In this document: positions 14,610-36,310 of the stretch, piece after piece
Numbering within the stretch: position 1 is the first letter of the stretch
Layout of the letters: each line of letters opens with the position of its first letter
Source: Escherichia coli
Lineage (GTDB): Bacteria > Pseudomonadota > Gammaproteobacteria > Enterobacterales > Enterobacteriaceae
DNA: 64,000 nucleotides
Assembly (NCBI RefSeq): GCF_041886205.1
Contig: NZ_CP169029.1
Direction: 5' to 3' (one strand)
The notes under the pieces: model-generated
Seen by the model: only the letters and a program-made list of their open reading frames with translations
Database searches by the model: none
What the model was told of the DNA's origin: nothing
Position numbers and translations under genes: made by a program

Positions 14610-14956
14610 TGTTATTTCTTTGTCAGGAGACTCTGAAAATATGGACATATATAACCTCTTTTATTATGAAATATTTTCAATAATAATCCGTTAGTAATCC
14701 TATCATAGGGTAATGCCTCATCATGTTAAAATGATCACATTTATAATCATGTCAAAAAGAACAACAGAAAAAATGATTTAAAATCAATTAAATATAATTT
14801 CAACATATTGTTGTTATTAAAACATTGGTGGTAAATGTAAAGCGAGAACAGTTTGTAACAGTGACTCCTTGCAGACTAAGTTAGAGTCTCCTGATCTTAC
14901 CCAGCAATAGTGGACACGCGGCTAAGTGAGTAAACTCTCAGTCAGAGGTGACTCAC

Positions 14957-19789: not shown

Positions 19790-20460
19790 AGCATGAAGAG
19801 TTTGAGGAAACTGAAGAGCTTCAAGCAATGAATCATATAATAAGCAGGCATAAGAGCGACATAACTACAGGCGGAAACAGCGATACAAGAAAACTACTGG
19901 TTTAGGTCACAATGCAGCAAAATGACAAACTCATACGACGGTTCTTGTGAATGATGCGGTGCCTAACCCGCAAATATCAGCATGATTCACCGTAGAACTT
20001 ACTGATACAAGATAACGTAATGATTGAGCTTATCTCATATGGGGTAACGCGCAATAAAAATAGTTGCAACATTGTTTATAATTGTTCAATCTATCTTATT
20101 TTTATTAATATAGTTGAGCTTCTCAACACATTACTTTAAAGTTCTACACTAAAGAGAACAAAATTATCACAACGGATATGGAGATACTTTCAGGCCAGTC
20201 AAACCGGTTTAACTGATATGGTTGAATACACGCTTGACTATGAATGGTTTATGGTATTCAGTCCCGATAACTATGGGGCCAGTTTTGTGTAGCTTTCAAC
20301 TTTAGTTGTTTTCACTCATCATAGATGATGCAATAAAAACATCATTTTCTCACGCATTGCATATTGCTGGTATATCCATATCGCATGTAGCACAGAGTGT
20401 TGACTAAATTATAGAAATATGATTTTTTATCTCATTGACAAAGAAGTTAAGGACCGAGAG

Positions 20461-20886
20461 ATGAGTTTTAATACCACACACGAGAAATCTGAAATCTATC
20501 GTCTGATCCTTAGAGAAAGTGAACTCATTACAGCATGGGTAAAATCTGGAGACACGCCGTCAGCAGTTTACGGAAAACTACGTGATAAAAACCCGGATAT
20601 AATCTTTTCGATAAATGGCTTTTTATATAACCTACGTAACTTTAACTATGCACTATATGAAACAGCCACAAAGAACAAAAGCAAAACAAGGTTAATAATA
20701 CTCAACCATTATGATGATATTGCATCAGCTATCCGTGCTGGTCATACGCTTAAAGGTGTTTACAAACTCGTATGCCCACATATAACATATAACTGTTTTA
20801 TTACACAACTCAGGAAAACCTATCCTGACCTGCATTCTCAGGGTAAAGCGAATCGCAGCAACAAAAACAGAATAATAGCTAACTGA
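20461..20886 (+). CDS. Hypothetical protein (141 aa), AT-rich orphan
   Basis: ORF with AAGGA Shine-Dalgarno 9 nt upstream of ATG at 20461; no recognisable motif. Confidence 0.4.
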   Translation: MSFNTTHEKSEIYRLILRESELITAWVKSGDTPSAVYGKLRDKNPDIIFSINGFLYNLRNFNYALYETATKNKSKTRLIILNHYDDIASAIRAGHTLKGVYKLVCPHITYNCFITQLRKTYPDLHSQGKANRSNKNRIIAN

Positions 20887-21194
20887 TGATATATAAAATG
20901 TTTTACACTATATCTTTTATTGTAACTAAAATTACTTTGATCCTACAAAAAGAAAGGTAAGAAGGGGTTTAAAAGATCATCACGAGACAACTGTTCTAGT
21001 TTTTTAAGCCCCCCATTAATTTAAAAAGCAGATACCAAGCATGAATAAGATTATATAAATTTCATTACATACAATTCATTACTGTCCGGACAAATATTGT
21101 TGTTTATAAAATATAACACACCAATTGTAAAGCTGTGAGCTCATGCTACTTTTAACAGAATTTTTAAACAAGAGGGAATGGGAGACCATTAATA

Positions 21195-21380
21195 ATGCAA
21201 GAAACAAAAACCAACCGCAAATCTAACTGTACAAACTGCAATATTCCTGGATGTAAGCAAACCCCATTTTGCAAGTACTGTCGTAGTGTCAAAGACATAT
21301 CCGGAGCTAGACGCTCTTTATATCTCCATGTAGCAATATTCATCATTATTATTGTACTTACTATTATTTCAGTACTTTGA
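21195..21380 (+). CDS. Hypothetical small Cys-rich protein with hydrophobic C-terminal segment
   Basis: 61 aa; CTNCNIPGCKQTPFCKYC cysteine cluster followed by a hydrophobic stretch (VAIFIIIIVLTIISVL); Shine-Dalgarno-like GGGAG upstream. Confidence 0.25.
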   Translation: MQETKTNRKSNCTNCNIPGCKQTPFCKYCRSVKDISGARRSLYLHVAIFIIIIVLTIISVL

Positions 21381-22053
21381 CAAGCCTTTTTGCACCAACT
21401 GATGTACACAATCAGATTTCAGCCTGTCCGTAATAATTATATTTGATATTACATTAACGCTCTTTAACTGTAGGACAGCACAGCGTAAATTGTTGAATAG
21501 TTCATTTAAAAAATCATAAGGATAAAAAACCAACACTTAAAACATTGTTCTTTTTCAAGAACACATATTTAAATAAAATAACAAACCGCTACCAACTTTA
21601 AAACATTAAAAAAACTGTGAGAGATTACTCTGAAAAGAGTTCATAGCTTTTTAATAAACCATATAAAGTAAACAATACATATGTTAACCCCCCAGAAAAA
21701 ACGTGACAAGAACATAACACCATAAGCAGATACCATATACACGCACACCACCATAACGAATTGGTCACTGGTTCATGACAAACCGTTCATAATTGCTAAA
21801 AATATTAATACACCATCATATAGACTTTCATGTCTAATGAAAAAATATTTATACTCCAGAATAGCCACAACCTTTATAAAATTCAGCTCATTAGAATATA
21901 AATGCATATGCCAATGAACAGAATACATTCTCATCCTTATTGAGGAACATACTGCCTGAGAGAAAAATCATCACTCAGACTTTGAAATAACATTGTCGAA
22001 TTCATATTATACAAAAGGGGAGTCATTCCCCTTTTTTAGCTTAGGTACTCAGT

Positions 22054-22875
22054 TTATAAGGAAATGGCAGAATACTCTGTGTTTATCCATGAGTGTTCCT
22101 TTTCCCAGGTGAATATCCATTTACGTACTGGTCCGGCCATCACGTTAAGGTAATAACTGTCATACCCGGCCATCGTCGCCACCGGGTGGTACCCTTTCGG
22201 CACCATGACCACGTCACGGTTATAGACCGCCATACATTCATCAAGTGTGCGGTCATCGGTATACACCCGCTGCATGCAGAACCCCTGTTCCGGGTTGAGG
22301 CGATGGTAATAGGTCTCCTCCAGATAGCTCTCCTGAGGCGGGTTATTCGTATCGTGTTTATGGCTCGGGTACGAACTGGTACAGCCTTCGTTGGTCCAGA
22401 CCTCGACGACCAGCAGGCTGTCAGCGGGCTTGTCTTCCGGCAAAATATTATGCACATAACGCTGGTTGTGGCCGTTACCGCGCGCTTCGCCATCGATATC
22501 CTGAGGTGCAATCAACCGCGTCGGGTATGTCCCTTTTCCCGGAGCGGTACAGACTGCCAGCTCCAGTTTCGTCAGCGCCTTCACCTGCACTGCCTCCTGC
22601 GGGGTGACGTAAACTGCCCAAGGTTTGATGCGCTCGAACGGGCTCATCCGCTCCCCGATATCAGTAAACTGTGCAGAAGGAGTGCTGATGAAAGCGCGCC
22701 CGGCCACCAGCACCAGACAGCGCTCTTCACTGACAGCGGGCAGCGTCAGTTGCTGCCCTTCCTCAAGTTCATAGGCCTCAAAGCCAACATATCCCCATCC
22801 GGCGCTTTCCGGCGTGACAGACTGAGTCCGCCCCTCAGCGTTCGGCTGTTGCCAGCGTGATAACAAACGTGACAT
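22054..22875 (-). CDS. iolB: 5-deoxy-glucuronate isomerase IolB
   Basis: 273 aa, KduI/IolB cupin-like; located in the iol operon. Confidence 0.8.
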   Translation of the reverse strand: MSRLLSRWQQPNAEGRTQSVTPESAGWGYVGFEAYELEEGQQLTLPAVSEERCLVLVAGRAFISTPSAQFTDIGERMSPFERIKPWAVYVTPQEAVQVKALTKLELAVCTAPGKGTYPTRLIAPQDIDGEARGNGHNQRYVHNILPEDKPADSLLVVEVWTNEGCTSSYPSHKHDTNNPPQESYLEETYYHRLNPEQGFCMQRVYTDDRTLDECMAVYNRDVVMVPKGYHPVATMAGYDSYYLNVMAGPVRKWIFTWEKEHSWINTEYSAISL

Positions 22876-22884
22876 GTCACCTCC

Positions 22885-23811
22885 TCAGATAAGCCCGGCG
22901 TCGCGCGCCAGGCGGCTCAGATTGTTATATCCCAGACGGGCGTAGGTCAGCGGATGGGCGATCGCCGGGTCCTGTTCAGCCTCCACCACCAGCCAACCGT
23001 GATAATCCTGCGTTTTCAGCAGTTGCATAATCGGCGGATAATCCACGCAGCCGTCACCCGGCACGGTAAACACGCCGCTCAGCACCGCGTCGAGGAAGCT
23101 GGTTTTACGGTTTTTGACGTCCGCCAGCACGTCGGCGCGCACATCTTTGCAGTGAACATGATTGATGCGCGATGCCCATCGCTGTGCCACCGCCAACGGA
23201 TCGGCCCCGGCAAAGGTCAGGTGGCCGGTATCCAGCAGTAAACCAACCTCCTCACCCGTGTGGAGCATCAGGTTGTCCACGTCTTGAGCGGACTCAATCA
23301 CCGTGCCCATATGATGGTGGTAAGCAATCTGTACCCCCTGTTGCTGCGTATAGCGGGCGAACACGGTGAGCTTCTCACCATACTCTTTCCAGCATTCCTG
23401 CGGGAAACGTGGGCGCAGGTGAACCGGCGTCTGCTGCTCACCGTGAATGCAGCCACTCACTTCCGCAAAAACCAGTACTTTTGCACCCAGCTCTCGCAGC
23501 AGCGTCAGATGCGACTGCACAGCAGCAATCTCGTCCTCTACACTGCGTTCCAACAGGCGGCCGGAATACCAGCCGGAGACCAACTGCAGGTCGTGGCGCT
23601 GCAAAATGGGGCCGAGCAGGCGCGCTTCTCGCGGGAATTTATTGCCCAGTTCGAAGCCGGCAAAACCGGCCTCTTTCCCTTCACTCAGGCAGGTCTCCAG
23701 AGATGTCTCCGCGCCCAGTGAAGGCAGATCATCGTTCGTCCACGTCAGCGGGTTGATGCCCAGTTGTACACTCATTGTCGTCTCCATTATGCGTGTCCGC
23801 GCTCGCGCCAC
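22885..23811 (-). CDS. iolE: Inosose dehydratase IolE (likely start MSVQLG at 23775)
   Basis: Xylose-isomerase-like TIM barrel; sequence GINPLTWTNDD typical of IolE. Confidence 0.8.
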   Translation of the reverse strand: MARARTRIMETTMSVQLGINPLTWTNDDLPSLGAETSLETCLSEGKEAGFAGFELGNKFPREARLLGPILQRHDLQLVSGWYSGRLLERSVEDEIAAVQSHLTLLRELGAKVLVFAEVSGCIHGEQQTPVHLRPRFPQECWKEYGEKLTVFARYTQQQGVQIAYHHHMGTVIESAQDVDNLMLHTGEEVGLLLDTGHLTFAGADPLAVAQRWASRINHVHCKDVRADVLADVKNRKTSFLDAVLSGVFTVPGDGCVDYPPIMQLLKTQDYHGWLVVEAEQDPAIAHPLTYARLGYNNLSRLARDAGLI

Positions 23812-25691
23812 CAGGCGATAAGCTGCAGGTAGTTGTCCCGGATGCGCGCCACCAACTGCGCATCGTCAATATCGTATTTCAGCCATGCGCGGGAGGCATC
23901 GCCAAACAGCGTGCGCCCCACGGCGAAGCCTTTCACCAGCGCCTGCCCCGCGGCAGCTTTGAAGTCGGCACGCAACTGTTCCGCCGGAGCATCCAGACCG
24001 AGGATCACCACGCCGCGGCAGTGCGGGTCCCGGCGCGCGATAATCTCGCTCAGTGCCGTCCAGCCTTCGGCGGAGAGCGGCGGCAGTTTCCACCAGTCGG
24101 GGTAAATGCCAAGGTTGTAGAAGCGGGAAATGGCACGCAGATAAAGTTCGTCACTGCGCGGCATAGTGGCGGGTAATATCACCTCCAGCAGCAGTTCATG
24201 TCCGGACTGACAGCAGGCGTGGTACACCTCGGCGATTTTCTGCTCCTGCTCCAGACGCAAGCCGTGGGCATCTTCCGGATGGAAAAAGACCAGGCACTTC
24301 ACCACATGCTCCTGCGGCCAACTGATAAGCTGGGTACCAATGTTACCGTGCTCCATCTCCAGCGGACGCGAGCCTGGCAGTTCAATGGGACGACCAATCC
24401 ACCACCCTTCGCCGGTAATGGCGTTCAGCGCATCCTGACCAAAGGTGCCATCGCACAGCAGGCCGGCTTTCCCCTCCAGCCCGGCAGAGCTTGCCGCCTC
24501 TCGGCTGGCCTGCAGGATCAGCTGTTTCAGCGCCGGAATACGCTTAAGCGACGCGCCGCACTGCAGCGCCATATCTTCCAGTTGACTGCGGTGATCGAAC
24601 GCCATCACGCACAGCTCCGGCCATTCGCGGCGGCGGGTGGTCACCCGGTGCAGATGGTTAAGACGCGGGTCAATGTCCGGGCGCGGAACGAGCGCGGCGC
24701 GGGAGAGGTAATCATCCAGCTCAATTTTGCTCGGCATCGCCGGTGCACAGCCGTGGCGCGAGACCACCAGCGCCCCACAGGCGTTGGCGTAGCGGCACGC
24801 CTGTTCCCAGCCCTCGTCGTTCAGGTAACCGCGCAGCAGGCCAGACATAAACGCATCTCCCGCGCCAAGGACGTTAAGCACCTCCACACGCACGCCGGTC
24901 ACCGTCAGGCCGTCATCCAGCCGAGGTGGAATGGCATCGGTATACACCGAACAGCCCAGCGCGCCGCGCTTGCAAACCAGTGTCGCCTTGCTGACGTGGC
25001 GCACCTGCGCCAGCGCCTGCAACGTATCGGTGCTGCCCCCCGCAATGTGAAACTCCTCTTCGGTGCCGACAACGACGTCGAAAAGGTGTAGCACCTCCTG
25101 AAGTTCACGGGTAACCTGTTCGGCAACGATAAAACGCGTTTCGCCGTCTCCTAGAGAGGTTAGTCCCCACAGCACTGGACGGTAGTCGATGTCCAGCACC
25201 GTGCGCACGCCGTGACGGCGGGCGTAATTCAGCGCCGTCAGCACCGCCTCGCGGGTCTGCGGGTGAGAAAGGTGAGTCCCGGTGATGGCAATACACCGTG
25301 CGGAGGCAATGTAGCTTTCGTCCACATCGCTGGCAGTAATCGCCATATCCGCGCAGTTATCGCGATAAAAAATCAGAGGAAAGGTGTCCCGGTCTTTAAT
25401 GCCGAGTAGCACCAGCGCCGTGAGGCGTTCTTTATCGGTGATCAGATGGCTGGTATCGCAGCCCACCTGGTTTAACTCTTCCCGCAGGAAGCGCCCCATA
25501 TGTTCATCGCCAACGCGCGCCAGCATTGACGAGCGTAAGCCCTGACGCGCGGTACCGTACGCCACGTTGCCGGACGAGCCGCCGAGATATTTGGCGAAGC
25601 TCGACACATCCTCCAGGCGGGCACCAATCTGCTGGCTGTAGAGGTCTACCGCCACGCGGCCCATGCATATCACATCAAACTGCTTTTCCAC
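23787..25691 (-). CDS. iolC: 5-dehydro-2-deoxygluconokinase IolC with C-terminal DUF2090/aldolase-like extension
   Basis: 634 aa; N-terminal PfkB-type sugar kinase (GAGDAF motif) plus ~300-aa C-terminal domain. Confidence 0.75.
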   Translation of the reverse strand: MEKQFDVICMGRVAVDLYSQQIGARLEDVSSFAKYLGGSSGNVAYGTARQGLRSSMLARVGDEHMGRFLREELNQVGCDTSHLITDKERLTALVLLGIKDRDTFPLIFYRDNCADMAITASDVDESYIASARCIAITGTHLSHPQTREAVLTALNYARRHGVRTVLDIDYRPVLWGLTSLGDGETRFIVAEQVTRELQEVLHLFDVVVGTEEEFHIAGGSTDTLQALAQVRHVSKATLVCKRGALGCSVYTDAIPPRLDDGLTVTGVRVEVLNVLGAGDAFMSGLLRGYLNDEGWEQACRYANACGALVVSRHGCAPAMPSKIELDDYLSRAALVPRPDIDPRLNHLHRVTTRRREWPELCVMAFDHRSQLEDMALQCGASLKRIPALKQLILQASREAASSAGLEGKAGLLCDGTFGQDALNAITGEGWWIGRPIELPGSRPLEMEHGNIGTQLISWPQEHVVKCLVFFHPEDAHGLRLEQEQKIAEVYHACCQSGHELLLEVILPATMPRSDELYLRAISRFYNLGIYPDWWKLPPLSAEGWTALSEIIARRDPHCRGVVILGLDAPAEQLRADFKAAAGQALVKGFAVGRTLFGDASRAWLKYDIDDAQLVARIRDNYLQLIAWWRERGHA

Positions 25692-25703
25692 GTTGAACCC
25701 TCT

Positions 25704-26837
25704 TCAGACAATGTCATTCACGTTCAGCCAGAGGCCCTGCTGGTGTGAGAGTGCGATGGCATCCAGCACACGCGAGACCTTCCAGCCCTCTTCGAAGTCC
25801 GGCCACATCGGTGCGTCGGTGGCGATGCCGTCTACCAGATCACGCACTTCCACCGTTTTTTGATCGTTAAAGCCGATACCATGACCTGCGCCCATGCAAA
25901 ACGCGCCGTAATCCGGGTGTGCCGGACCGACCAACAGTGTCCGGAACCCCTGACGGTTCACCGGATCATCATGCAGATAGAGCTTTATCTCTGCCATCCG
26001 CTCTTGGGTAAAACTGATCGCTCCTTTGGTACCAGTAATGACGTATGACAGCCCCATCTTGCGGCCGCAGGCGACACGGGAAGTTTCAATGACGCCCTGC
26101 GCCCCGCCCGCAAAGCGCACCATCGCGTGGGCCTGATCTTCATTTTCCACGGTGACCATTTCCGACGATCCGGCCTTTGCCGGACGTGCCGGTACCACAA
26201 TTTTCAGATCGCCACAAACCTGCTCAATCTCTCCCACAAGATACTGGGCCATATTGACGATATGTGCCGCCAGGTCACCCAGAGCCCCCAGTCCGGCGGT
26301 CTCTTTAAAACAGTGCCAGTGAATAGGGGAAAGCGGGTCGGCCATATAGTCTTCGTTGTGGGTTCCGTAGAAGTGGATCACCTCACCAATTTCGCCGCGC
26401 GCAATAATCTCTTTCGCCAACTGTGCCGTCGGGTTTTTCATGTAATTGAAACCCACCAGCGTTTTCACCCCTGCCCGCTTCGCAGCGTCGACCATCTCAC
26501 GCGCGTCGTGGGCATTCAGTGCCAGCGGCTTTTCCGAATAGACGTGCTTGCCGTGGCGGATCGCCTCCAGCGCCATCTCTTTGTGAAGATGGTTAGGGGA
26601 GCAAATATCCACCACATCAATGGCCGGGTCGACCACGAGCACCCGCCAGTCTCCGGTTGAGCGATTGAAGCCAAACGCCTGCGCGCGTTCTGCCGCCAGC
26701 GCCGGATTCACCTCAGCCACCATCTCGCGCACCAGTTTGCCGCGCAGATTGAACACCGTCGGTGCCTGGGCATAGGCAATGGCATGCGCCTTGCCAATAT
26801 ACCCGGTGCCAATCAATCCAATACGAACCTCTTTCAT
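25704..26837 (-). CDS. Gfo/Idh/MocA-family oxidoreductase (second inositol dehydrogenase-like enzyme)
   Basis: Rossmann motif IGLIGTGYIGKAH; ~377 aa from MKEVRIG. Confidence 0.75.
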   Translation of the reverse strand: MKEVRIGLIGTGYIGKAHAIAYAQAPTVFNLRGKLVREMVAEVNPALAAERAQAFGFNRSTGDWRVLVVDPAIDVVDICSPNHLHKEMALEAIRHGKHVYSEKPLALNAHDAREMVDAAKRAGVKTLVGFNYMKNPTAQLAKEIIARGEIGEVIHFYGTHNEDYMADPLSPIHWHCFKETAGLGALGDLAAHIVNMAQYLVGEIEQVCGDLKIVVPARPAKAGSSEMVTVENEDQAHAMVRFAGGAQGVIETSRVACGRKMGLSYVITGTKGAISFTQERMAEIKLYLHDDPVNRQGFRTLLVGPAHPDYGAFCMGAGHGIGFNDQKTVEVRDLVDGIATDAPMWPDFEEGWKVSRVLDAIALSHQQGLWLNVNDIV

Positions 26838-26845
26838 CGTGATCC

Positions 26846-27874
26846 TCACAGTGCGCCGCGACGGCTCTTGGCATAGGTGTCGAATGCCACCGCCAGAACG
26901 ATAATTAATCCGGTGATAATTTGCTGGTAGTAGGCCGAGACGTTCATCAGTACCAGGCCATTAATCAGAATGCCCATGATGATGGAGCCGATGATAGTGC
27001 CGCCGATGCGCCCATATCCCCCCATCAACGACGTGCCGCCAATAACCACCGAGGCAATAACACGCAGCTCAAAGGAGATCCCGGCAACCGCCTCAGCGCT
27101 CCCCAGACGAGCGCTCAGGATGAAGCCCGCCAGCCCCGCCAGACAGCCAATCAGCACATAGACGCTAACCAGCACACGCTTCACGTTTACCCCAGCCAGA
27201 CGTGCCGCCTCCGGGTTGCCACCGATGGCATAGACGAAGCGCCCCCAACGGGTTTTATGCAGTGCCAGATAACCACCAATGGCAACGATGGCGAAGATCC
27301 AGATCGGAATGGAGATGCCGAGCAATTCCCCTCGTCCCCACCAGCGATAACCCTGATCGAAGCCGGCAATCGGCGCACCGTCGTTAATCACGAGCGTCAG
27401 ACCACGCCAGATGGTCATCCCGCCAAGGGTGACGATGAACGGTGGTAGGCGCAGGCGGGTGACGCCCAGACCGTGCAGGAAGCCAATCGCTGTACCCATG
27501 GTCAGACAAATCCCCAGCCCAATCAGCCAGCTCATACCGCCCCAAGCGTTCGGATCGACTGTGGTGAAATTGTCGCCTTTGATCACGTACGCCGCTGTCA
27601 TGGCGCACACTGCCAGAATAGAGCCCACGGAGAGGTCGATCCCAGCGGTCAGAATGACGAAGGTCATCCCCACGGCCATGATCCCGTAGATGGAGACTTC
27701 GGTCAGGATGTTGAAAATATTGCGTTCAGAGAAAAAATTACTGTTCTGCGACTGAAAGAAGATCAGCAGCAGGATCATGAAAATCAGTACCCCGAAGCGC
27801 TCGAAGAAGGCAATGGGATCGATGCGTCCGGCGCGTTTTACCGGGACCTGCGTTTTAGGAATCATCTGCGTCAT
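26846..27874 (-). CDS. Sugar ABC transporter permease (ribose/monosaccharide type)
   Basis: 342 aa, multiple hydrophobic segments, start overlaps upstream gene. Confidence 0.8.
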   Translation of the reverse strand: MTQMIPKTQVPVKRAGRIDPIAFFERFGVLIFMILLLIFFQSQNSNFFSERNIFNILTEVSIYGIMAVGMTFVILTAGIDLSVGSILAVCAMTAAYVIKGDNFTTVDPNAWGGMSWLIGLGICLTMGTAIGFLHGLGVTRLRLPPFIVTLGGMTIWRGLTLVINDGAPIAGFDQGYRWWGRGELLGISIPIWIFAIVAIGGYLALHKTRWGRFVYAIGGNPEAARLAGVNVKRVLVSVYVLIGCLAGLAGFILSARLGSAEAVAGISFELRVIASVVIGGTSLMGGYGRIGGTIIGSIIMGILINGLVLMNVSAYYQQIITGLIIVLAVAFDTYAKSRRGAL

Positions 27875-27885
27875 GAGAAACTCCG

Positions 27886-29433
27886 TTATGCCGCGTTCAG
27901 GGCGTTGTGGTTGATAGCCATCATCGTCATCAGCCGTTCTTCGTTAGCGTCGTCACCGTGGATCTCGCCAGTTAACCGGCCTTCACTAAGGGTGATGATC
28001 CGGTCAGACACCGCCATCACTTCAGGCAGATCGGAGGAGATCACGATCACCGCCACGCCCTTTTTCGCCATATCAAACAGCACCTGGTGCACTTCCGATT
28101 TGGTTCCAACGTCGATGCCACGTGTCGGCTCATCGACAATCAACACCCGTGGATTGAGCGCCATGCAGCGCGCGAGGATAACTTTCTGCTGGTTGCCGCC
28201 AGAGAGCTTACGCACCTCCTGCGTGCTGTTGACCATTTTGATCTGCAGCGCCTGGCGGTAGGACTCAATCAGGTCGTCCTCTTTGCGGGTATTCACAAAC
28301 CAGCGCCACTGCAACAGCGAGGAGAGGCAGGAGAGCGACAGGTTGTCGCGAATCGACAGACCCAGCACCGCCCCCTCTTTTTTGCGATCTTCCGGCACCA
28401 GCGCCAGCCCTTGCTCCAGCGCATAAAGTGGGTCACGCGGCTGGTACGGCACGCCGTCCAGCTCAAAGCTGCCGGTGGTAAAGGCGTCGGCGCCAAACAG
28501 GCAGCGCGCTACCTCAGTACGACCAGCCCCCACCAGCCCAGCGATACCCAGAACTTCCCCTGCATGGACGTGAAAACTGATGTCATGCAGGGCGATGCCG
28601 TGTGGATCCAGCGGCGGTTTTTCCCGGCTTAACCCCTTCACCGACAAACGGACAGGTTTGTCTTCATGGTGGGTTTCGCTGGCAGGGCGGCGGTTAAAGG
28701 CCACATCACGCCCTACCATCAGGCGGATCAACTGCTCTACGTTCGTCTCCGTCACTGCGCCGGTGCCGGTGAAACGGCCATCCTGGAAAACGGTGAAACG
28801 ATCGCAAAGCTGGAAAACTTCATGCAGACGGTGAGTAACGTAAATAATGCTCACGCCGCGGTTTTTAAGCTCCCGCACCACGCGGTGCAGGCTTTCCACC
28901 TCGCTGTCACTCAGGGCGGCGGAGGGTTCATCCATGATGATCAGCCTGGCATTGAGGGTCAGCGCCCGGGCAATCTCCACCATCTGCTGCTGGGCCACGC
29001 TCAGACGGGCGACTGGCGTGGTGGGTGCGACATTCAGTTGCAGATAATCGAGAATCACCTGCGCTTCCTGATTGACCGCTTTTTCGTCGACGATCAGGTT
29101 ACGTTTACGCGGTTCGCGTCCGAGAAACATGTTTTCCGCAACGGTCATATTGGGCAGCAGGTTGAATTCCTGATAGATGGTGATAATGCCCTTGTTCTGC
29201 CGTTCTACCGGGGAGTCGTCCACCGGCAGCGTTTCGCCATTGAACCAGATCTCCCCGCGCGTTTGTGGCTGTGCGCCCGCGAGTGCCTTCAACAGCGTGG
29301 ATTTCCCAGCGCCGTTTTCGCCCAGCAAAGCGTGAATTTCACCCGTGCCGACGGTGAGCTGGGCGCTGCTCAGCGCCCATACGCCGGAAAAGCTTTTTGC
29401 CAGGTCGGTTACTTTCAGTAAGGGTTGCGACAT
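27886..29433 (-). CDS. Sugar ABC transporter ATP-binding protein (duplicated ABC domains)
   Basis: 515 aa; Walker A GENGAGKST, signature LSGGNQQK. Confidence 0.85.
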   Translation of the reverse strand: MSQPLLKVTDLAKSFSGVWALSSAQLTVGTGEIHALLGENGAGKSTLLKALAGAQPQTRGEIWFNGETLPVDDSPVERQNKGIITIYQEFNLLPNMTVAENMFLGREPRKRNLIVDEKAVNQEAQVILDYLQLNVAPTTPVARLSVAQQQMVEIARALTLNARLIIMDEPSAALSDSEVESLHRVVRELKNRGVSIIYVTHRLHEVFQLCDRFTVFQDGRFTGTGAVTETNVEQLIRLMVGRDVAFNRRPASETHHEDKPVRLSVKGLSREKPPLDPHGIALHDISFHVHAGEVLGIAGLVGAGRTEVARCLFGADAFTTGSFELDGVPYQPRDPLYALEQGLALVPEDRKKEGAVLGLSIRDNLSLSCLSSLLQWRWFVNTRKEDDLIESYRQALQIKMVNSTQEVRKLSGGNQQKVILARCMALNPRVLIVDEPTRGIDVGTKSEVHQVLFDMAKKGVAVIVISSDLPEVMAVSDRIITLSEGRLTGEIHGDDANEERLMTMMAINHNALNAA

Positions 29434-29484
29434 CAGCCTGCTCCTTATTTATGGGGAGCCGCCCGTACGGCGGCTCCAGACAAA

Positions 29485-30414
29485 TCAGTTACCGGCCTCA
29501 GCAATACGCTCAGCCTGTTGCAGGTTCTCTTTGGTGATCAGCGTCGGCGGATAGTCCGCACCGGTGATAGTTTTTTTCTCACGCACGTTAGCCACCAGTT
29601 GGCTCATCGCCGTGGTCACCGCAAAGCCGGGACGCTGATCCGCCGTAACCGCCAGCCAGCCGTCGCGCACGCGGGCCAGTGCTTCCGGTACCGCATCAAA
29701 ACCGGTGACCAGGATTTCACCCGGTTTCACACCCTGACTCTGCAGCGCTTCAATCGCCCCCAGCGCCATATCATCGTTGGCAGAGAGGATCACCTGAGGA
29801 CGTTTTGGCAGCGACGGCAAAACGCTTTCGACAATGCGCATCCCTTCCGAGCGCATCCAGTTGCCGGTCTGATCGGCGACGATCTTGTACATATCCCCGC
29901 CAGCCTTCAGGCTGTCGCGGATCCCTTTGGTGCGTTCAATGTTGGAGGAGGAACCCGGTTGACCGGTCAACAGAATGATCTCCGCGCCGTTGGGGAATTT
30001 GGTTTTGACGAAGTCGCCAATCGCCTGGCCGCCCTTGTAGTTGTTGGCACCAAAGTGCGGCACTTTTTTCTGGCTGTCGACAGAGCGGTCAAGCGTAACG
30101 ACCGGCAGCTTCGTATCCTGAATTTCATCTACCGCACTGGAGACCGCGTTCACATCGTTCGGGGAGACAATAAAGCCCTGCGCACCACGGGTGATGGCGT
30201 TTTCCAGGTCAGCCACCTGCTTCGGTGAGCTGCCCTGACCGTCCAGTACCTGAAGTTTCACCCCCATCTCTTTTGCGGCTTTCACCGCCGTGCGCTGCAT
30301 GTGAACTTCAAACGGCATGGCCAGGTTTGGCGTACTGAAAACAATTTGCTCGTTTTCGGCTATGGCGGCCCCGGATGTCATGGCGATTAGGGCGGCTAAG
30401 ATCAGTTTTTTCAT
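29485..30414 (-). CDS. Periplasmic sugar-binding protein of the ABC importer (putative inositol-binding)
   Basis: Signal peptide MKKLILAALIAMTSGAAIA; ATG at 30412-30414; the longer upstream ORF extension is rejected. Confidence 0.8.
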   Translation of the reverse strand: MKKLILAALIAMTSGAAIAENEQIVFSTPNLAMPFEVHMQRTAVKAAKEMGVKLQVLDGQGSSPKQVADLENAITRGAQGFIVSPNDVNAVSSAVDEIQDTKLPVVTLDRSVDSQKKVPHFGANNYKGGQAIGDFVKTKFPNGAEIILLTGQPGSSSNIERTKGIRDSLKAGGDMYKIVADQTGNWMRSEGMRIVESVLPSLPKRPQVILSANDDMALGAIEALQSQGVKPGEILVTGFDAVPEALARVRDGWLAVTADQRPGFAVTTAMSQLVANVREKKTITGADYPPTLITKENLQQAERIAEAGN

Positions 30415-30445
30415 TATTATGTCTCTCTGTGTAGGGTTGTTGTGT

Positions 30446-31432
30446 TTAGAGGACGATCTCACGCTGGCAACGCAGTGATTCCAGCGCTTTATCCGCGAGG
30501 TACAGCGCACGTTCACCATCATCGCCGCTGCAATCAGGCACCGCTTCGCCGCGCAGAACCGCAACAAAGTGCTCCCATTCCGCTGCGTAAGCGGATTTGT
30601 AGCGTTGCAGGAAGAAGTGTTCCGGCAGCGCGCTGGTGCAACCCTGTTTGCCGTAGTGCTGCACCTGGTTTTCAAGGATATTGCCCGCGCACAGCAGCCC
30701 TTCGGAACCGTGTAGCTCCAGGCGCTGGTCGTAGCCGTATGAAGAGCGGCGACTGTTGACGATGGTCGCCATCGCGCCGGAGGCATATTTCAGAACGATA
30801 AATGCGGTGTCGATATCTCCCGCTTCGCCAATCGCCGGATCCACCAGATTGCTGCCCTGGGCATACACCGACACCGGCTCTTCACCCATGATGAAGCGTG
30901 CCATGTCAAAGTCGTGGATGGTCATATCACGGAACATGCCGCCGGAAACACGCACGTACACCGCAGGCGGTGGAGACGGATCGCGGGAGATGATCAGCAG
31001 TGATTCCGGTTTGCCGATACGCCCGGCCTGAGTGTCGGTTTTCACGCGACGGAACTGTGGGTCAAAGCGGCGGTTAAAACCGATAAACAGCGGTACGTCA
31101 TACTCTTTGACCACTTTCAGGCAGTCGCGTACGCGGGCAAGATCAAGGTGTACCGGTTTTTCACAGAAAATGGCTTTGCCGTAACGGGCGGCCATTTCAA
31201 TCAGATCCGCGTGGGTGTCGGTCGCGGAGGCGATCAATACGGCATGAACGTTCGGGTCGGTCATCGCCTCATCCAGGCTCTGCTGGCGCGCCTGATACTG
31301 TGTCGCGAGACGCGTGGCGAACTCCTGATTCGGGTCTACCACAGACCAGAGCGTGGTCGCACTATGGCTGGCGATGTTAGCTGCATGTACCTGGCCAATT
31401 CGGCCAGCGCCCAGTAAAGCAATGTTAAACAT
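30446..31432 (-). CDS. iolG: myo-Inositol 2-dehydrogenase IolG (Gfo/Idh/MocA family)
   Basis: 328 aa; N-terminal Rossmann motif ALLGAGRIGQVHA. Confidence 0.8.
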   Translation of the reverse strand: MFNIALLGAGRIGQVHAANIASHSATTLWSVVDPNQEFATRLATQYQARQQSLDEAMTDPNVHAVLIASATDTHADLIEMAARYGKAIFCEKPVHLDLARVRDCLKVVKEYDVPLFIGFNRRFDPQFRRVKTDTQAGRIGKPESLLIISRDPSPPPAVYVRVSGGMFRDMTIHDFDMARFIMGEEPVSVYAQGSNLVDPAIGEAGDIDTAFIVLKYASGAMATIVNSRRSSYGYDQRLELHGSEGLLCAGNILENQVQHYGKQGCTSALPEHFFLQRYKSAYAAEWEHFVAVLRGEAVPDCSGDDGERALYLADKALESLRCQREIVL

Positions 31433-31626
31433 AACGGCTCCCGGTGTTGATGAATGCGGTGAACTAACGACACTACAAATAAAACATTTATTTCATTTTT
31501 ATAAATAGTGAAAATTATATTTTGAGTGACAGTTAACACTTTTGAGATGTATTAGATAAATTTTGTTATCAATCTCACAACGCCGAGGAAGATATGTCCC
31601 TCCATTACAAGGGGGGGAGGGAATAA

Positions 31627-31656
31627 AAACTGTACCATCCCCTCTCCCGTTGGGAG
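31627..31656 (-). terminator. Perfect 14-bp-stem palindrome, probable terminator after iolD
   Basis: CCATCCCCTCTCCC-GTT-GGGAGAGGGGATGG; T-rich run follows on the minus strand. Confidence 0.5.
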
Positions 31657-31716
31657 AGGGGATGGGTGAGAGGAAAAAAGAAAAATGAAATGAAAATTTC
31701 GTTACGACAGGAAAAC

Positions 31717-33642
31717 TCAATACTGACGAGCTTTTTTCACCTGAGCCTGTGTTTGCTCGGCGGCCTGGCGCACTGCTGGCGACTCTGCCACCTGTGCGTT
31801 GCCGGTTCGCCACCATGACGCGTAATCATGGGTCATGGTTTTTGGTAGCACTTTGATGTCGAGGAGCGTCGGTCCCGGGTGAGCGCGCGAGGCTTCCAGC
31901 GCCGCCAGCAGGCTTTTCTCATTATGTACCCGCCATGCGCGGCAACCGTAGCTTTCCGCGTTTTGCGCAAAATCGACCTTCACCAACGGCCCGTCAAGCT
32001 GACCTGTTTTCGGATTACGGTAACGATTTTCTGTGCCAAAACTCCCCATTCCGTGCCCCATCTGCAGGTTATTAATGCAGCCAAAGCTGGCGTTATCAAA
32101 CAGCAGAATGGTGACCTTAATTCCCTCCTGTACGGCAGTTTGCAGCTCTGAGTGCAGCATCATGTACGAACCATCGCCTACCATGGCATACACCGGCTGC
32201 TGAGGTTTTGCCAGCTTCGCACCAATAGCCGCTGCGACCTCATACCCCATGCAGGAGTAACCATACTCCAGATGGTAACTGTCAGGCGTTTTAACCTGCC
32301 AGAGGCGTTGCAAATCCCCTGGCAGCGATCCGGCCGCCCCCACCACAATGGCGTTATCCTCAATATGCTGGTTAATGAGCCCCAACACCCGCGTCTGGGT
32401 CAGGTGTGTGTTGAGCGTTTCACCGTATTCCATTAGCTGTGCATCAAGGTGCCCTGCCACTTCGGGAACGTCGTCAGGATGCCACTGGCGTTCCCACAGT
32501 CGACAGCATTCATCGTGCCAAGCGGATTTCGCATGGGCAATCGCCTCCCCCCAGCCACTACGATAATCTTTCAGTGCGTGGGTCAACGCTGTCAGACCAG
32601 TTCGGGCATCGGCAATGAGCGCGGTGGCATCCAGCTTCAAGGAGTCAAACTCAGCCACGTTCAGCAGCAGGAACTCGACGTCGGGATGAGAAAAGAGCGC
32701 CTTAGAGCCGGTAGTAAAATCCGTCAGGCGCGTGCCGATGCCAATCACTAAGTCAGCCTGCGGCGCAAGCTGGTTGGCAGCCATTCCGCCCGTCACGCCC
32801 ACCCCGCCCAGATTAAGCGGGTGGTCACTTACCAGCGCCCCCTTACCGGCCTGGGTTTCGGCAAACGGCAATTGCAGCACTTCAACAAATTCCCGTAACG
32901 CCTCATGCGCACCGGAGTAACGCACGCCACCGCCGCACACCACCAGTGGACGGCGCTTGCGGGAAATCAATGCATGAGCCTGCGCCAGTCGCTGCGGGTC
33001 AGGCGGACGGCGTTCAATATGATGCACCCGACGCGCAAAGAAACTCAGGGGGTAATCCCAGGCCTCCCCCTGCACATCCTGAGGTAGGCAAATGGTCACC
33101 GCCCCTGTATTTGCGGGGTCAGTAAGCGTTCGCATCGCACTTAACATCGCGCTCATAAGCTGTTCAGGACGGTTGATGCGGTCCCAGTAGCGGGAAACCG
33201 GGCGGAAGCAATCGTTGGTACTGATGCTGAGATCGTGATACTGCTCGATCTGCTGCAACACGGGGTCAGGCTGGCGGCAGGCGTAGATATCCCCTGGCAG
33301 TAGCAGCAGTGGAATGCGGTTCGCCGTGGCCGTCGCTGCCGCCGTCACCATATTGGCAGCGCCAGGCCCAACGGATGAGGTGACAGCAAAAATACGCTGA
33401 CGGCGATGCTGTTTGGCGAATCCCGTCGCCATATGGGCAATCCCCTGCTCGTTACAGCCTTGCATCACCTGCAGATGACCAGGATCCTGCTCCAGCGCCT
33501 GGCCGATACCGAGCACGTTACCGTGCCCAAAGATCGTTGCCACGCCCTCCACAAAGGGCGTTTCTTTACCATCAACGCTAACATATTGTTGGTTAAGAAA
33601 TCTGACCAGAGCCTGGGCCATAGTCATACGTTCGGTTTGCAT
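31717..33642 (-). CDS. iolD: 3D-(3,5/4)-trihydroxycyclohexane-1,2-dione hydrolase IolD (TPP-dependent)
   Basis: 641 aa; thiamine-diphosphate enzyme motifs (GDGSYMM). Confidence 0.85.
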
Positions 33643-33653
33643 AAAACCCCCTG

Positions 33654-35159
33654 TCAGCCCAGAGTCGGCATGGAGAACGCTGCACCTGTCTCCTGCTGCA
33701 TTTCCGGCCAGCGTGCAGTGATGGTTTTCATTCGGGTGTAGAAACGCACGCCATCGTTCCCGTGAACATTGAGCGCGCCAAAAATGGAACGTTTCCAGCC
33801 ACCGAAACAGTGGAATGCCATTGGCACCGGGATCGGCACGTTGACCCCCACCATACCCGCCTGCACCTCTTCACAAAAGCGGCGTGCGCAGCCACCGTCA
33901 CGGGTGAAAATGGCCGAGCCATTACCATATTCGTGTCGGTTAATCAGATCCACCGCGCTGGCGTAATCTGCTACGCGCACCACAGAAAGCACCGGTCCGA
34001 AAATTTCTTCTTTATAGATGGTCATCTCCGGGGTGACGTTATCGAACAGAGTCGGCCCAACGAAATAGCCCTGCTCGTGCCCTTTCACGCTGAGGCCACG
34101 CCCGTCCACACGCAGGTTAGCCCCCTGAGCTTCGCCACTGTCGATATAGCCCAACACTTTGCTGCGGTGTGCGGCGGAGATCAGCGGCCCCATCTCGTTT
34201 TCTGGCGTCTGGTTCAGGCCAGGTCCGACGCGCAGCGAAGCGATCTTTTTTTCCAGCCGGGCGCAGAGTTCATCAGCCGTTTTATCGCCAACCGCCACCA
34301 CCACGGAAAGCGCCATGCAGCGTTCTCCTGCCGCACCATAAGCTGCGCCCATTATGGCGTTTGTCGCCATATCCATATCGGCATCCGGCATTAAAATGCA
34401 GTGGTTTTTCGCACCGCCGAGCGCCTGACAGCGCTTACCGTGGGCGGACGCAGTCAGGTACATGTATTCGGCAATCGGTGTTGAACCGACAAAACTGACG
34501 GCCTGCACGCGCGGGTCGGTCAGGAGCACATCAACGGATTCTTTATCGCCCTGCACCACGTTGAATACGCCGTCCGGCAGGCCTGCCTCTTTCAGCAGTT
34601 TCGCCAGCGCGAGCGCCAGAGACGGATCTTTTTCCGACGGTTTCAGCACGAAGGTGTTGCCTGTCGCCAGAGCTATCGGGAACATCCACATTGGCACCAT
34701 CGCCGGGAAGTTAAACGGCGTGATCCCGGCGCAGACCCCGAGCGGCTGCATCAGTGAGTGGCTGTCGACACCTGTGCCAACGTTCGCAGAGTGTTCGCCT
34801 TTTTGCAGATGTGGGATGCCGCAGGCGAATTCTACCACTTCCAGACCACGGGTCAGTTCACCTACTGCATCTGAGAAGACCTTACCGTGTTCTTCACTGA
34901 TAATACGGGCCAGACGCACCATATTCTCTTCAAGCAACGCTTTGAAGCGGAACATCACACGCGCGCGCTTGAGTGGAGCAAAACGTGCCCACGCGGGAAA
35001 CGCCAACTGTGCTGCGGCAATCGCCTGTTCGGTTTCCTGTGCCGTACTCATCACCACCTGGCGAATCTGCTCGCCAGTGGCCGGGTTGAAGATAGCCTGA
35101 ATGCGCTGGCCTGAACCGGTGACACATTCGCCGTGAATAAAATTCGCTACCGTCTCCAT
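33654..35159 (-). CDS. iolA: Methylmalonate-semialdehyde dehydrogenase IolA/MmsA
   Basis: 501 aa aldehyde dehydrogenase with catalytic Cys context and FTGST-like motif. Confidence 0.85.
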
Positions 35160-35449
35160 CCTTAACCTCTCGCTGTTGATACGTGACTGTTACCTGAACG
35201 TTATGTACTGAACACTATATATGAAACAAATATTCCATTTTAAGTTGAAATAAAATAAATAATGATTATTGTGATCAAGGATGGATTTTTATGTGAACAG
35301 CCAGCATCACTGACTCAGCCTGAGCTATTAGGAGTTTCGGGCGAGGAAATGACTGAAGCTTCTGTTTCATTTTTGCTGCCAGGTGGATGGCCAACATTTA
35401 AAAGACGCGGTTTTGCGTTTAGAATCATGAGACTGGATAGGGGGATAAC

Positions 35450-36310
35450 ATGACGACAGCAACCAGCCTGAACGAACTACAAAAGCAAATCCGCGATCGC
35501 TACGATAGCCTGAGCAAAAGGCTGCAGCAGGTCTCCCGCTATGTACTGGATAATACGAACAGTGTCGCGTTTGATACGGTTGCGGTCATAGCCGAACGTG
35601 CCGATGTTCCACCCTCTACACTGATTCGTTTTGCCAATGCCTTTGACTTCACCGGCTTCAACGAAATGAAACAGTTATTTCGTATGCACCTGGTGGAGGA
35701 AACCGCCAGCTACAGCGATCGTGCGCGACTGTTCCGCGAAATGGAGAGCGAAGCCGTACCTGAAACGCCGCTCGATATTTTGCAGGAGTTCGCCAGTTCG
35801 AACTCGCAGGCGCTGCAGCAGTTGGCTGCCCGCGCCGAACCGGAGATGCTGGAGCACGCCGTACAACTACTGGCCTACGCCGACACCATTTACATCGCCG
35901 GATTACGCAGATCCTTTAGCATTGCTGCTTATCTTACCTATGCTTTAAGCCACCTAGAGTGCCGCCCTATTCTGCTTGACGGGATGGGCGGCATGCTGCG
36001 CGAACAGATCAGCCGTATTAAGGCGTGCGACATTGTGGTGTCGATCAGTTTCTCGCCGTACGCGGAAGAAACGGTGATGGTCAGCAAAACCGCCGCCAGC
36101 GTCGGCGCTCGGCAGATTGTGATTACGGATAGCCAGATCAGCCCACTGGCAACGTTCAGTGATCTCTGCTTTGTGGTGAAAGAGGCTCAGGTGGACGCAT
36201 TTCGGTCTCAGTCGGCAACATTGTGTCTGGTGCAGTCGTTAGTGGTCGCGCTAGCTTACCGTTTAGGAGATAAAAAACATAATAATACCCAGGAAAACAG
36301 TAACCAATAA
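35450..36310 (+). CDS. iolR: RpiR/MurR-family transcriptional regulator IolR (HTH + SIS domain)
   Basis: 286 aa; divergent from iolA. Confidence 0.75.
   Translation: MTTATSLNELQKQIRDRYDSLSKRLQQVSRYVLDNTNSVAFDTVAVIAERADVPPSTLIRFANAFDFTGFNEMKQLFRMHLVEETASYSDRARLFREMESEAVPETPLDILQEFASSNSQALQQLAARAEPEMLEHAVQLLAYADTIYIAGLRRSFSIAAYLTYALSHLECRPILLDGMGGMLREQISRIKACDIVVSISFSPYAEETVMVSKTAASVGARQIVITDSQISPLATFSDLCFVVKEAQVDAFRSQSATLCLVQSLVVALAYRLGDKKHNNTQENSNQ

Follow-up and report, generated by a model that had tools for sequence, protein, structure and literature searches.

In the inositol-catabolic (iol) operon of Escherichia coli analysed here, a second dehydrogenase gene was identified in addition to iolG, and from sequence comparison we cautiously favour its product being an NAD+-dependent scyllo-inositol dehydrogenase. 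The window, i.e., the whole stretch of 64,000 nucleotides analysed, corresponds to an E. coli accessory island with flanking IS elements that is present in approximately 1% of complete genomes, carriers including ZYB62, C10/C11, and NCTC10444. Diverged copies of the island also occur on plasmids, and the module moves intact on chromosomal islands and plasmids. The accessory dehydrogenase gene would be co-transcribed with the genes of an inositol ABC transporter and with iolC, iolE, and iolB. Scyllo-inositol would be taken up through this ABC transporter and oxidized by the accessory dehydrogenase, working in the catabolic direction, to scyllo-inosose (2-keto-myo-inositol). The same compound is formed from myo-inositol by IolG and is next dehydrated by IolE, and one extra enzyme could thereby open the myo-inositol pathway to scyllo-inositol. 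To our knowledge, scyllo-inosose can be reached by a single oxidation only from myo- and scyllo-inositol. A lone extra dehydrogenase would thus feed IolE directly only from these two isomers, which makes scyllo-inositol the best reading.

The minus-strand ORF spans positions 25704 to 26849, corresponding to 381 codons counted from a GTG. This in-frame GTG (26849–26847) overlaps the TGA stop codon (26848–26846) of the ABC permease gene. A GAGGA Shine-Dalgarno sequence (26847–26843) lies 5 nt before an ATG at 26837. The N-termini of homologs read MKxVRIG, with which the accessory dehydrogenase agrees when begun at this ATG, and the same start is used for the identical E. coli protein in RefSeq (WP_000665944.1). 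Based on the ribosome-binding site, the homolog N-termini, and RefSeq, the GTG start was discarded for the ATG, and the coding sequence given in Table 1 is the correct one. The preliminary description had combined two different starts: its length of 377 aa fits the ATG, but its end coordinate of 26849 belongs to the upstream GTG. It had correctly placed the gene between the transporter genes and iolC, with the permease gene on one side and iolC on the other. The ATG lies 8 nt past the permease stop codon, and iolC begins 12 nt after the stop codon of the accessory dehydrogenase gene.

Table 1. Features of the iol operon and its surroundings in the window.
Feature	Coordinates	Strand	Basis
iolB, 5-deoxy-glucuronate isomerase	22054..22875	-	TIGR04378, 321.5 bits (cutoff 205)
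iolE, myo-inosose-2 (scyllo-inosose) dehydratase	22885..23775	-	TIGR04379, 428.5 bits (cutoff 290); RefSeq start
iolC-DUF2090 fusion, bifunctional 5-dehydro-2-deoxygluconokinase/aldolase	23787..25691	-	NF047869, 942 bits (cutoff 600)
Accessory Gfo/Idh/MocA dehydrogenase CDS, 377 aa, ATG start	25704..26837	-	ORF list, sequence, Pfam/NCBIfam, RefSeq
Translation-initiation region	26843..26849	-	Read from sequence
ABC transporter permease	26846..27874	-	Sequence, Pfam, RefSeq
ABC transporter ATP-binding protein	27886..29433	-	Pfam, NCBIfam, RefSeq
Periplasmic inositol-binding protein, ABC transporter	29485..30414	-	Pfam Peripla_BP_4; RefSeq start
iolG, canonical myo-inositol 2-dehydrogenase, 328 aa	30446..31432	-	TIGR04380, 440.9 bits (cutoff 355)
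14-bp G+C-rich hairpin followed by T-run	31635..31665	-	Terminator-like scan, pattern match only
iolD	31717..33642	-	TIGR04377, 934 bits (cutoff 715)
iolA/mmsA, CoA-acylating (methyl)malonate-semialdehyde dehydrogenase	33654..35159	-	Pfam Aldedh; RefSeq name
Divergent RpiR/MurR-family regulator (IolR-type)	35450..36310	+	NCBIfam RpiR-family matches; RefSeq name

The top PDB matches of the periplasmic binding protein are 4RXM (1e-135) and 4IRX (3e-70). The hairpin is located inside the 284-nt gap between iolD and iolG, and may function in termination or attenuation, parting iolA-iolD from the genes running from iolG to iolB. Homologs of the RpiR/IolR-type regulator adjoin the dehydrogenase gene in many alphaproteobacterial loci. 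No IolI-type inosose isomerase was identified in the operon by Pfam and NCBIfam scans, in which IolE was the sole PF01261 protein. The preliminary description had proposed that the enzyme uses another inositol stereoisomer, naming scyllo- or D-chiro-inositol. The former has the best support, from LgdA of Paracoccus as the nearest characterized enzyme, from IolY of Sinorhizobium, and from the iol linkage. With no IolI-type isomerase in the operon, D-chiro-inositol is the less likely option. The other role suggested was action on a pathway intermediate; for a downstream intermediate this has nothing in its favor, as each later step is already served by an operon enzyme.

The accessory dehydrogenase is a member of the Gfo/Idh/MocA oxidoreductase superfamily. 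Its N-terminal domain matches PF01408 (88 bits, cutoff 24; E = 1e-24), and its C-terminal region matches PF22725 (99.7 bits, cutoff 27; E = 1.6e-28) and PF02894 (77.6 bits, cutoff 22.9; E = 1.5e-21). The superfamily hallmarks are all present, including the GxGxxG motif (G10-T-G-Y-I-G15), the EKP motif (E102-K103-P104), and the Lys-Asp-His triad. The AlphaFold2 model of the monomer has a mean pLDDT of 96.5. Compared with an 89%-identical plasmid copy, the gene has a dN/dS of 0.022, as low as the values for iolG (0.025) and iolE (0.028); the gene is intact and under purifying selection. Because of the Pfam domain matches, the pLDDT, and the dN/dS, this is not a chance ORF. In a Foldseek search, the structures of levoglucosan dehydrogenase, LgdA, 4GQA, 4H3V, and 4FB5 all superpose on the model with TM scores of 0.93–0.97, and the fold comparison with these five structures did not tell sub-functions apart.

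The accessory dehydrogenase and the IolG of the operon share the superfamily, the catalytic triad, and the operon, but only 26% amino acid identity over 253 residues. The accessory dehydrogenase is approximately 50 residues longer, with a long C-terminal loop bearing His319, and scores 122.1 bits against TIGR04380, below the IolG cutoff of 355. The gene is thus a real second oxidoreductase distinct from IolG, as had been described from the sequence, and an IolG paralog or simple duplicate is ruled out by the identity and the failed IolG model. If the scyllo-inositol assignment is right, the two enzymes would yield identical products. We consider it rather improbable that the enzyme is instead a second myo-inositol dehydrogenase, either redundant with IolG or with another regiochemistry, e.g., attack at C4 giving L-epi-2-inosose as in LgdA. 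LgdA does oxidize myo-inositol, with C4 attack suggested by its structure; orthologs of the accessory dehydrogenase are labelled 'myo-inositol 2-dehydrogenase' in several databases, and the gene shares its operon with a myo-inositol-type binding protein. However, the score against the IolG model is low, and a bona fide IolG is present in the same operon. The strong purifying selection on both genes argues against plain redundancy, and L-epi-2-inosose has no route in the operon.

The top NCBIfam match of the accessory dehydrogenase is levoglucosan dehydrogenase (6A3F; NF052479), which aligns over the full length with 365.2 bits. It has the same fold and shares 42% amino acid identity, and its structures rank first in Foldseek (TM 0.95–0.97). 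The score, however, is far under the curated NF052479 cutoff of 650. Gln165 and Leu318 of levoglucosan dehydrogenase correspond to Glu162 and His319 in the accessory dehydrogenase, and LgdA is preferred as partner, with levoglucosan dehydrogenase excluded, in 137 of 150 bootstraps. In addition, lgdB1 lies near 253 of 265 levoglucosan dehydrogenase orthologs, and the gene studied here has no lgdB1 or lgdC neighbor. A levoglucosan dehydrogenase function is therefore hardly credible and effectively refuted by score, pocket residues, neighbors, and bootstraps.

The closest characterized and solved relative is LgdA (Pl-scyllo-IDH) of Paracoccus laeviglucosivorans (PDB 5YA8, 5YAB, 5YAP, and 5YAQ), with 44% amino acid identity to 5YA8 over the full length (E = 1e-96) and a TM score of approximately 0.94–0.97 to the model. 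LgdA is reported to prefer scyllo-inositol, with a kcat/Km of 190 compared to 10.7 for myo-inositol and 17.4 for L-glucose (PMC5969746). It is also described there as promiscuous, oxidizing L-glucose, myo-inositol (for which the structure suggests attack at C4), and weakly D-glucose, and as reducing inososes with NADH (PMC5969746). Both genes lie within inositol-catabolic clusters, that of lgdA being reported as putative (PMC5969746; PMC12632266). The two enzymes have in common the Lys-Asp-His triad, the EKP motif, and an acidic, NAD-type residue ending strand beta-2. By alignment, K106, D191, and H195 of the LgdA triad correspond to K103, D188, and H192 in the accessory dehydrogenase, and the pocket residues Y135, E165, L192, and H318 to Y132, E162, L189, and H319. 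Tyr135, Tyr163, and Glu165 are substrate-binding residues of LgdA, Arg178 on a flexible lid loop touches inositol and NADH, and H318 on a long C-terminal loop reaches the active site of the neighboring subunit (Fukano et al., 2018). LgdA activity is almost lost in H318A, and R178A leads to a tenfold rise in the Km for scyllo-inositol. His319 is present in 119 of 120 clade members in the sequence alignment; the AlphaFold2 model is a monomer and the inter-subunit loop is outside its reach. The equivalents of E165 and H318 are absent from levoglucosan dehydrogenase and Klebsiella 4GQA.

Of the substrate-binding trio, Tyr132 and Glu162 are kept in the accessory dehydrogenase and LgdA Tyr163 is replaced by His160. 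Arg178, which like Tyr163 forms hydrogen bonds with inositol in LgdA, is replaced by His175. The two histidines are essentially invariant across the gammaproteobacterial clade, with His175 in 118 of 120 members. This pair hints at a clade-specific specificity. Because these two substrate-contacting residues are replaced and the enzyme falls in its own clade without a characterized member, the substrate is one that we infer. It is conceivable, though unlikely, that the clade-specific histidines set a specificity unlike that of LgdA and that the enzyme acts on some other cyclitol or sugar; candidates would be D-chiro-inositol, epi-inositol, or a further inositol isomer, inositols carrying methyl groups, and aldoses resembling L-glucose. 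The promiscuity of LgdA itself is in line with this possibility, as is the location of some orthologs away from iol genes. Some alphaproteobacteria also carry two distinct paralogs, both in iol contexts (loci L027 and L036), pointing to diversified specificities. Against a different substrate, Glu162 and His319, the marks of an inositol-type site, are retained, the linkage with iolC, iolE, and iolB is tight and conserved, and neither an isomerase nor any other enzyme for channeling another inosose is encoded in the operon. It is likewise conceivable, though unlikely, that the His160/His175 clade represents a distinct specificity class of iol-linked dehydrogenases, with either another substrate (a different inositol isomer or a cyclitol derivative) or another regiochemistry.

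Strand beta-2 ends in Glu42; among the 120 clade sequences, 108 carry Glu here and 7 carry Asp. An acidic residue at this position typifies NAD+-dependent inositol dehydrogenases, and in the NADP(H)-dependent IolW and IolU it is replaced by a small neutral residue (Ala/Ser/Thr) (PMC9603128). Glu42 suggests that the cofactor of the accessory dehydrogenase is NAD+. Among the Firmicute scyllo-inositol dehydrogenases, which include B. subtilis IolX, IolW/YvaA, and IolU and L. casei 4N54, the proposed role is alike, namely feeding scyllo-inositol to the iol pathway or converting it to myo-inositol and back. They are only distant relatives (E of approximately 1e-11 to 1e-14, partial alignments), and IolW and IolU of B. 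subtilis are NADP-dependent; the Firmicute enzymes would be functional analogs, not orthologs. A reductase that works mainly from scyllo-inosose to scyllo-inositol and, in the manner of B. subtilis IolW, serves as a valve for overflow or isomer interconversion appears quite improbable here. The reaction is reversible, with LgdA reducing inososes using NADH, and B. subtilis is reported to interconvert both isomers via IolG and IolW. The known dedicated reductases, however, have the small neutral beta-2 residue, which is absent from the accessory dehydrogenase, and its gene lies within a catabolic operon.

In the neighbor-joining (NJ) phylogeny, the gammaproteobacterial clade of the accessory dehydrogenase was recovered in 200 of 200 bootstraps, separate from LgdA. 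The deep order of the sub-clades did not emerge firmly from this analysis. Only 22 of 200 bootstraps returned the exact super-clade defined by E165/H318, and the placement of 4GQA versus LgdA is ambiguous, with the accessory dehydrogenase grouping with the 4GQA clade, which contains no characterized member, to the exclusion of LgdA in 84 of 150. The top-scoring clade profile is that of an alphaproteobacterial clade without a characterized member (516 bits), compared with 373 bits for the LgdA clade and 358 bits for the IolY clade. The association with iol genes is strong in other species: among 80 of their loci encoding a relative, at least two of iolB/C/D/E lie within 10 kb in 47 and at least one in 53. 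The gene order target-iolC-iolE-iolB is kept in Aeromonas, with a different transporter. In Pantoea ananatis and Yersinia aldovae, the orthologs are solitary, and iol genes are absent from the 10 kb around them.

According to PMC11615355, which cites Kohler 2010, S. meliloti needs the gene smc01163 (iolY) to catabolize scyllo-inositol. The locus tags SMc01163 (iolY), SMc01164 (iolR), SMc01165 (iolC), and SMc01166 (iolD) agree with the layout dehydrogenase-iolR-iolCDEB in the Rhizobium/Mesorhizobium clade that holds R. etli 4FB5, and on this gene order, not on its sequence, IolY probably belongs to the 4FB5 clade. IolY and 4FB5, like the enzyme studied here, are iol-linked accessory Gfo/Idh/MocA dehydrogenases, and their group, with IolY assigned by gene order, shares with it Glu165 and His318 (LgdA numbering). 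The 4FB5 clade shares approximately 38–41% amino acid identity with the accessory dehydrogenase, and each of the two clades is separate with 200 of 200 bootstraps. The pocket of the 4FB5 clade is characterized by Met163, Lys178, and Phe192, and the accessory dehydrogenase is outside this signature group. The 4FB5-clade gene is divergent from iolR-iolCDEB, whereas the accessory dehydrogenase gene is embedded in the operon.

Literature searches retrieved no enzyme assay or growth test for the accessory dehydrogenase or its clade, nor any experiments on whether Enterobacterales use scyllo-inositol. Accessory dehydrogenases embedded in iol loci are known from Paracoccus and Sinorhizobium, so the finding is no conceptual advance, and the accessory dehydrogenase is most likely an ordinary member of a known enzyme group. 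Similar enzymes are also on record for Pseudomonas and Vibrio. The classical view of E. coli is that of an inositol-negative species, and the mobile 10-gene module represents an inositol pathway for approximately 1% of sequenced strains. Plants, soils, and animal tissues all contain scyllo-inositol. If the scyllo-inositol dehydrogenase assignment is true, module-bearing E. coli strains could use scyllo-inositol too, a result that would modestly refine strain-level metabolic maps. It would also sharpen the generic 'Gfo/Idh/MocA family protein' annotations in Enterobacterales, Aeromonas, and Pasteurellaceae. If the clade instead proves to be a distinct specificity class, rare E. coli lineages would gain a nutrient niche undescribed for the species.

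The accessory dehydrogenase gene was found as a single long minus-strand ORF in the six-frame ORF list (25704-26849, GTG start, 381 codons). The preliminary description was right about the existence and position of this gene but joined the end coordinate 26849, which belongs to the GTG start, to the length of 377 aa that belongs to an ATG start at 26837. The ATG is favoured because a GAGGA Shine-Dalgarno motif was read at 26847-26843, 5 nt 5' of it, homologs begin with MKxVRIG, and the identical RefSeq protein WP_000665944.1, annotated simply as a 'Gfo/Idh/MocA family protein', has the same start. The GTG shares bases with the stop codon of the permease gene and probably does not serve as a start.

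Gene organization of the iol operon and coordinates of neighbouring features
Feature	Position	Strand
uhpC-like MFS gene	13326-14648	
Low-G+C stretch (33% G+C)	20001-22000	
Small hypothetical ORF	20419-20886	
iolB	22054-22875	-
iolE	22885-23775	-
iolC fused to DUF2090 aldolase	23787-25691	-
Accessory dehydrogenase	25704-26837	-
Permease	26846-27874	-
ABC ATPase	27886-29433	-
ABC-transporter binding protein	29485-30414	-
iolG	30446-31432	-
Hairpin and T-run	31635-31665	-
iolD	31717-33642	-
iolA/mmsA	33654-35159	-
RpiR-type regulator	35450-36310	divergent from pathway genes

IolB, IolC, IolD, IolE and IolG each score above their NCBIfam equivalog cutoffs. The gaps between the permease stop and the dehydrogenase start (8 nt) and between the dehydrogenase end and the iolC start (12 nt) imply that these three genes are probably co-transcribed. 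In the 284-nt iolD-iolG gap, pattern matching identified a strong 14-bp G+C-rich hairpin followed by a T-run, which may act as a terminator or attenuator and divide the operon into two units, iolA-iolD and iolG to iolB. The best solved relatives of the binding protein in a PDB search are 4RXM and 4IRX, which we take to be inositol-binding proteins. Two ORF boundaries were also revised: a 433-aa ORF (29485-30786, minus strand) extends into iolG, for which RefSeq and the alignment of homologs put the true binding-protein start at 30414 (309 aa), and a 308-aa iolE ORF from GTG 23811 overlaps iolC, with the RefSeq start at 23775. NCBIfam NF047869 names the IolC-DUF2090 fusion a bifunctional kinase/aldolase. 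The fused DUF2090 of IolC accounts for the lack of a stand-alone iolJ aldolase in the operon.

The dehydrogenase contains the Gfo/Idh/MocA N- and C-terminal domains (Pfam). It shares 26% identity with the IolG of the operon, and its score against the IolG model, 122 bits, falls under the cutoff of 355. Its best NCBIfam model is levoglucosan dehydrogenase (365 bits; curated cutoff 650). A PDB sequence search returned the scyllo-inositol dehydrogenase LgdA of Paracoccus first (E=1e-96), followed by Klebsiella 4GQA, levoglucosan dehydrogenase 6A3F, R. etli 4FB5 and Kribbella 4H3V. The structure was modelled with AlphaFold2 from an alignment of 52 sequences at very high confidence (pLDDT 96.5, pTM 0.93), and the model superposes on all five structures at TM 0.93-0.97. 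The predicted fold confirms the subfamily and does not discriminate among its members.

In neighbour-joining (NJ) trees with 200 or 150 bootstrap replicates, the protein falls within a gammaproteobacterial clade (200/200) to which a Marinobacterium sequence is sister in 155/200 replicates. LgdA (198/200) and IolY/4FB5 (200/200) form separate clades. The protein is placed with LgdA and apart from levoglucosan dehydrogenase in 137/150 replicates, with 4GQA rather than LgdA in 84/150, and the exact 'Glu165/His318' super-clade appears in only 22/200. Among clade profiles, the highest score (516 bits) is to an iol-linked alphaproteobacterial clade with His163-Glu165-Arg178-His318 (Paracoccus versutus, Gemmobacter), for which no characterised member was found in the literature. 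Lower scores were obtained with the alphaproteobacterial Val163-Glu165-Arg178 clade (L017-type: Shimia, Gemmobacter; 450 bits), the single Marinobacterium sequence (L012; 444), 4GQA (386), LgdA (373), IolY/4FB5 (358) and levoglucosan dehydrogenase (332). Placement by NJ trees and profiles is ambiguous, and the functional assignment therefore rests on pocket residues, genomic context and chemistry, without clean orthology to a characterised enzyme.

Residues of LgdA were mapped onto the protein by alignment. The LgdA catalytic triad K106, D191 and H195 (Fukano et al., 2018; PMC5969746) is conserved as K103, D188 and H192. The reported substrate contacts of LgdA are F17, Y135, Y163, E165, R178, L192 and H318 of the neighbouring subunit (PMC5969746). 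Four of them are conserved (Y132, E162, L189 and H319), F17 is conservatively changed to Y13, and Y163 and R178 are replaced by H160 and H175. The R178A substitution in LgdA gives a tenfold higher Km for scyllo-inositol, and H318A leaves almost no activity (Fukano et al., 2018; PMC5969746). Levoglucosan dehydrogenase has Gln165 and Leu318 (LgdA numbering) and 4GQA has Asn135, Gln165 and Gly318, whereas our protein has Glu and His at 165 and 318; it thus carries the inositol-type Glu/His pair. Levoglucosan dehydrogenase, the name of the best NCBIfam model, is an extremely improbable identity, ruled out by score, pocket residues, bootstraps and the missing lgdB1 neighbour, which was seen for 253 of 265 true levoglucosan dehydrogenase orthologs but is absent here. 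H160 and H175 are present in 120/120 and 118/120 cluster representatives (≥67% identity), respectively. This histidine pair could set a different cyclitol or sugar specificity, which we regard as unlikely. The residue that ends strand beta-2 is Glu42; an acidic residue there is, as a rule, typical of NAD+-dependent inositol dehydrogenases (PMC9603128).

All steps after scyllo-inosose are encoded in the operon (IolE, IolD, IolB, the IolC kinase with its fused aldolase, and IolA). Profile scans found no IolI-type inosose isomerase in the operon, since IolE is its only PF01261 protein. Only two compounds give scyllo-inosose in a single oxidation: myo-inositol, when its axial C2 hydroxyl is oxidised, and scyllo-inositol, whichever hydroxyl reacts. 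Given this stereochemistry, a lone accessory dehydrogenase feeding the pathway is best read as a scyllo-inositol dehydrogenase, which would oxidise scyllo-inositol to scyllo-inosose and feed IolE. We hold this assignment, based on pocket residues, context and chemistry, with moderate confidence. The proposed reaction is the one LgdA prefers, and the proposed role is that reported for IolY. A second myo-inositol dehydrogenase, possibly with other regiochemistry, is a reading that we consider improbable. A mainly reductive role appears more improbable still. Of the substrates suggested in the preliminary description, scyllo-inositol is favoured, and D-chiro-inositol and a pathway intermediate are disfavoured. 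A literature search found no experimental work on this protein, its clade or scyllo-inositol use by Enterobacterales.

Over its 13.1 kb, the iol region matches the E. coli ZYB62 chromosome at 100% identity; 53 of the 5426 complete E. coli genomes (~1%) carry it. The dehydrogenase gene occurs in 51 E. coli genomes, with ≥99% identity in 44. The iol region forms part of an accessory island bordered by IS66, IS3 and IS1 remnants and by a tyrosine integrase adjoining ycdU. On E. coli plasmids, copies of the gene with ~89% nucleotide identity occur at seven places. One of these plasmids was inspected, NZ_CP112990.1 (locus L085, 1564-15766), and there the same 10-gene module adjoins IS30/IS3 and the plasmid genes psiB/ardA. 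The 10-gene module with its regulator (22054-36310) is mobile. Between chromosomal and plasmid copies, dN/dS is 0.022 for the dehydrogenase, 0.025 for iolG and 0.028 for iolE, indicating that purifying selection on it is as strong as on the other two. Bovine hosts (cow, calf, cattle, Bos taurus) seem frequent among the island-positive strains, an impression from ~20 listed rows. The uhpC-like gene, isolated between IS elements, and the low-G+C stretch adjoining iolB, with its hypothetical ORF, look like unrelated island cargo. Downstream of the regulator, at ~36.4-45.7 kb (approximate, from ZYB62 annotation), are a transposase fragment, a degraded TOTE conflict-system primase-domain pseudogene, inovirus-type Gp2, YfjI and DUF3987 proteins, and the integrase adjoining ycdU; this region resembles a composite integrative element.

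Close orthologs, sharing 67-90% identity, are present in Enterobacterales, Aeromonas, Plesiomonas and Pasteurellaceae. In Aeromonas the ortholog lies directly before iolC-iolE-iolB, with a transporter of another family, and in Mannheimia it has the ABC transporter on one side and an IolG-like gene on the other. Eighty loci, one genome per species, were scanned by tblastn with the Iol proteins of the window. In 47/80 loci two or more of IolB/C/D/E were found no farther than 10 kb from the homolog, and in 53/80 one or more. This linkage extends to homologs of 37% identity and is missing from all five loci below 35%. A large Rhizobium/Mesorhizobium clade containing 4FB5 shows the layout dehydrogenase-iolR-iolC-iolD-iolE-iolB, matched by the S. 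meliloti locus tags SMc01163 (iolY), SMc01164 (iolR), SMc01165 (iolC) and SMc01166 (iolD). From this gene order we infer that IolY belongs to the 4FB5 clade. PMC11615355 reports, with reference to Kohler et al. (2010), that smc01163 is necessary for scyllo-inositol catabolism. Some alphaproteobacteria (Paracoccus versutus loci L027 and L036, Shinella locus L033) carry two different paralogs, one with His163/Glu165/His318 and the other of the 4GQA type with Asn135/Gln165/Gly318. Both adjoin iol genes, and the uncharacterised 4GQA-type clade is therefore iol-linked too.

Orthologs with ~70% identity and the same His160/His175 signature were found in Yersinia aldovae (L010) and on a metagenome contig (L004) whose P0094 protein is named Pantoea ananatis in NCBI/UniRef; no iol genes were found within 10 kb of either. 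Because of these lone orthologs, enzymes of this type may also work outside the operon, or alongside an iol cluster at another site in the genome. Accessory Gfo/Idh/MocA genes located in iol clusters were described earlier as 'idh' in Vibrio coralliilyticus and 'mocA' in Pseudomonas, and they prompted the same speculation. The E. coli enzyme is a new, uncharacterised member of the iol-linked dehydrogenases, which are already known as a kind.
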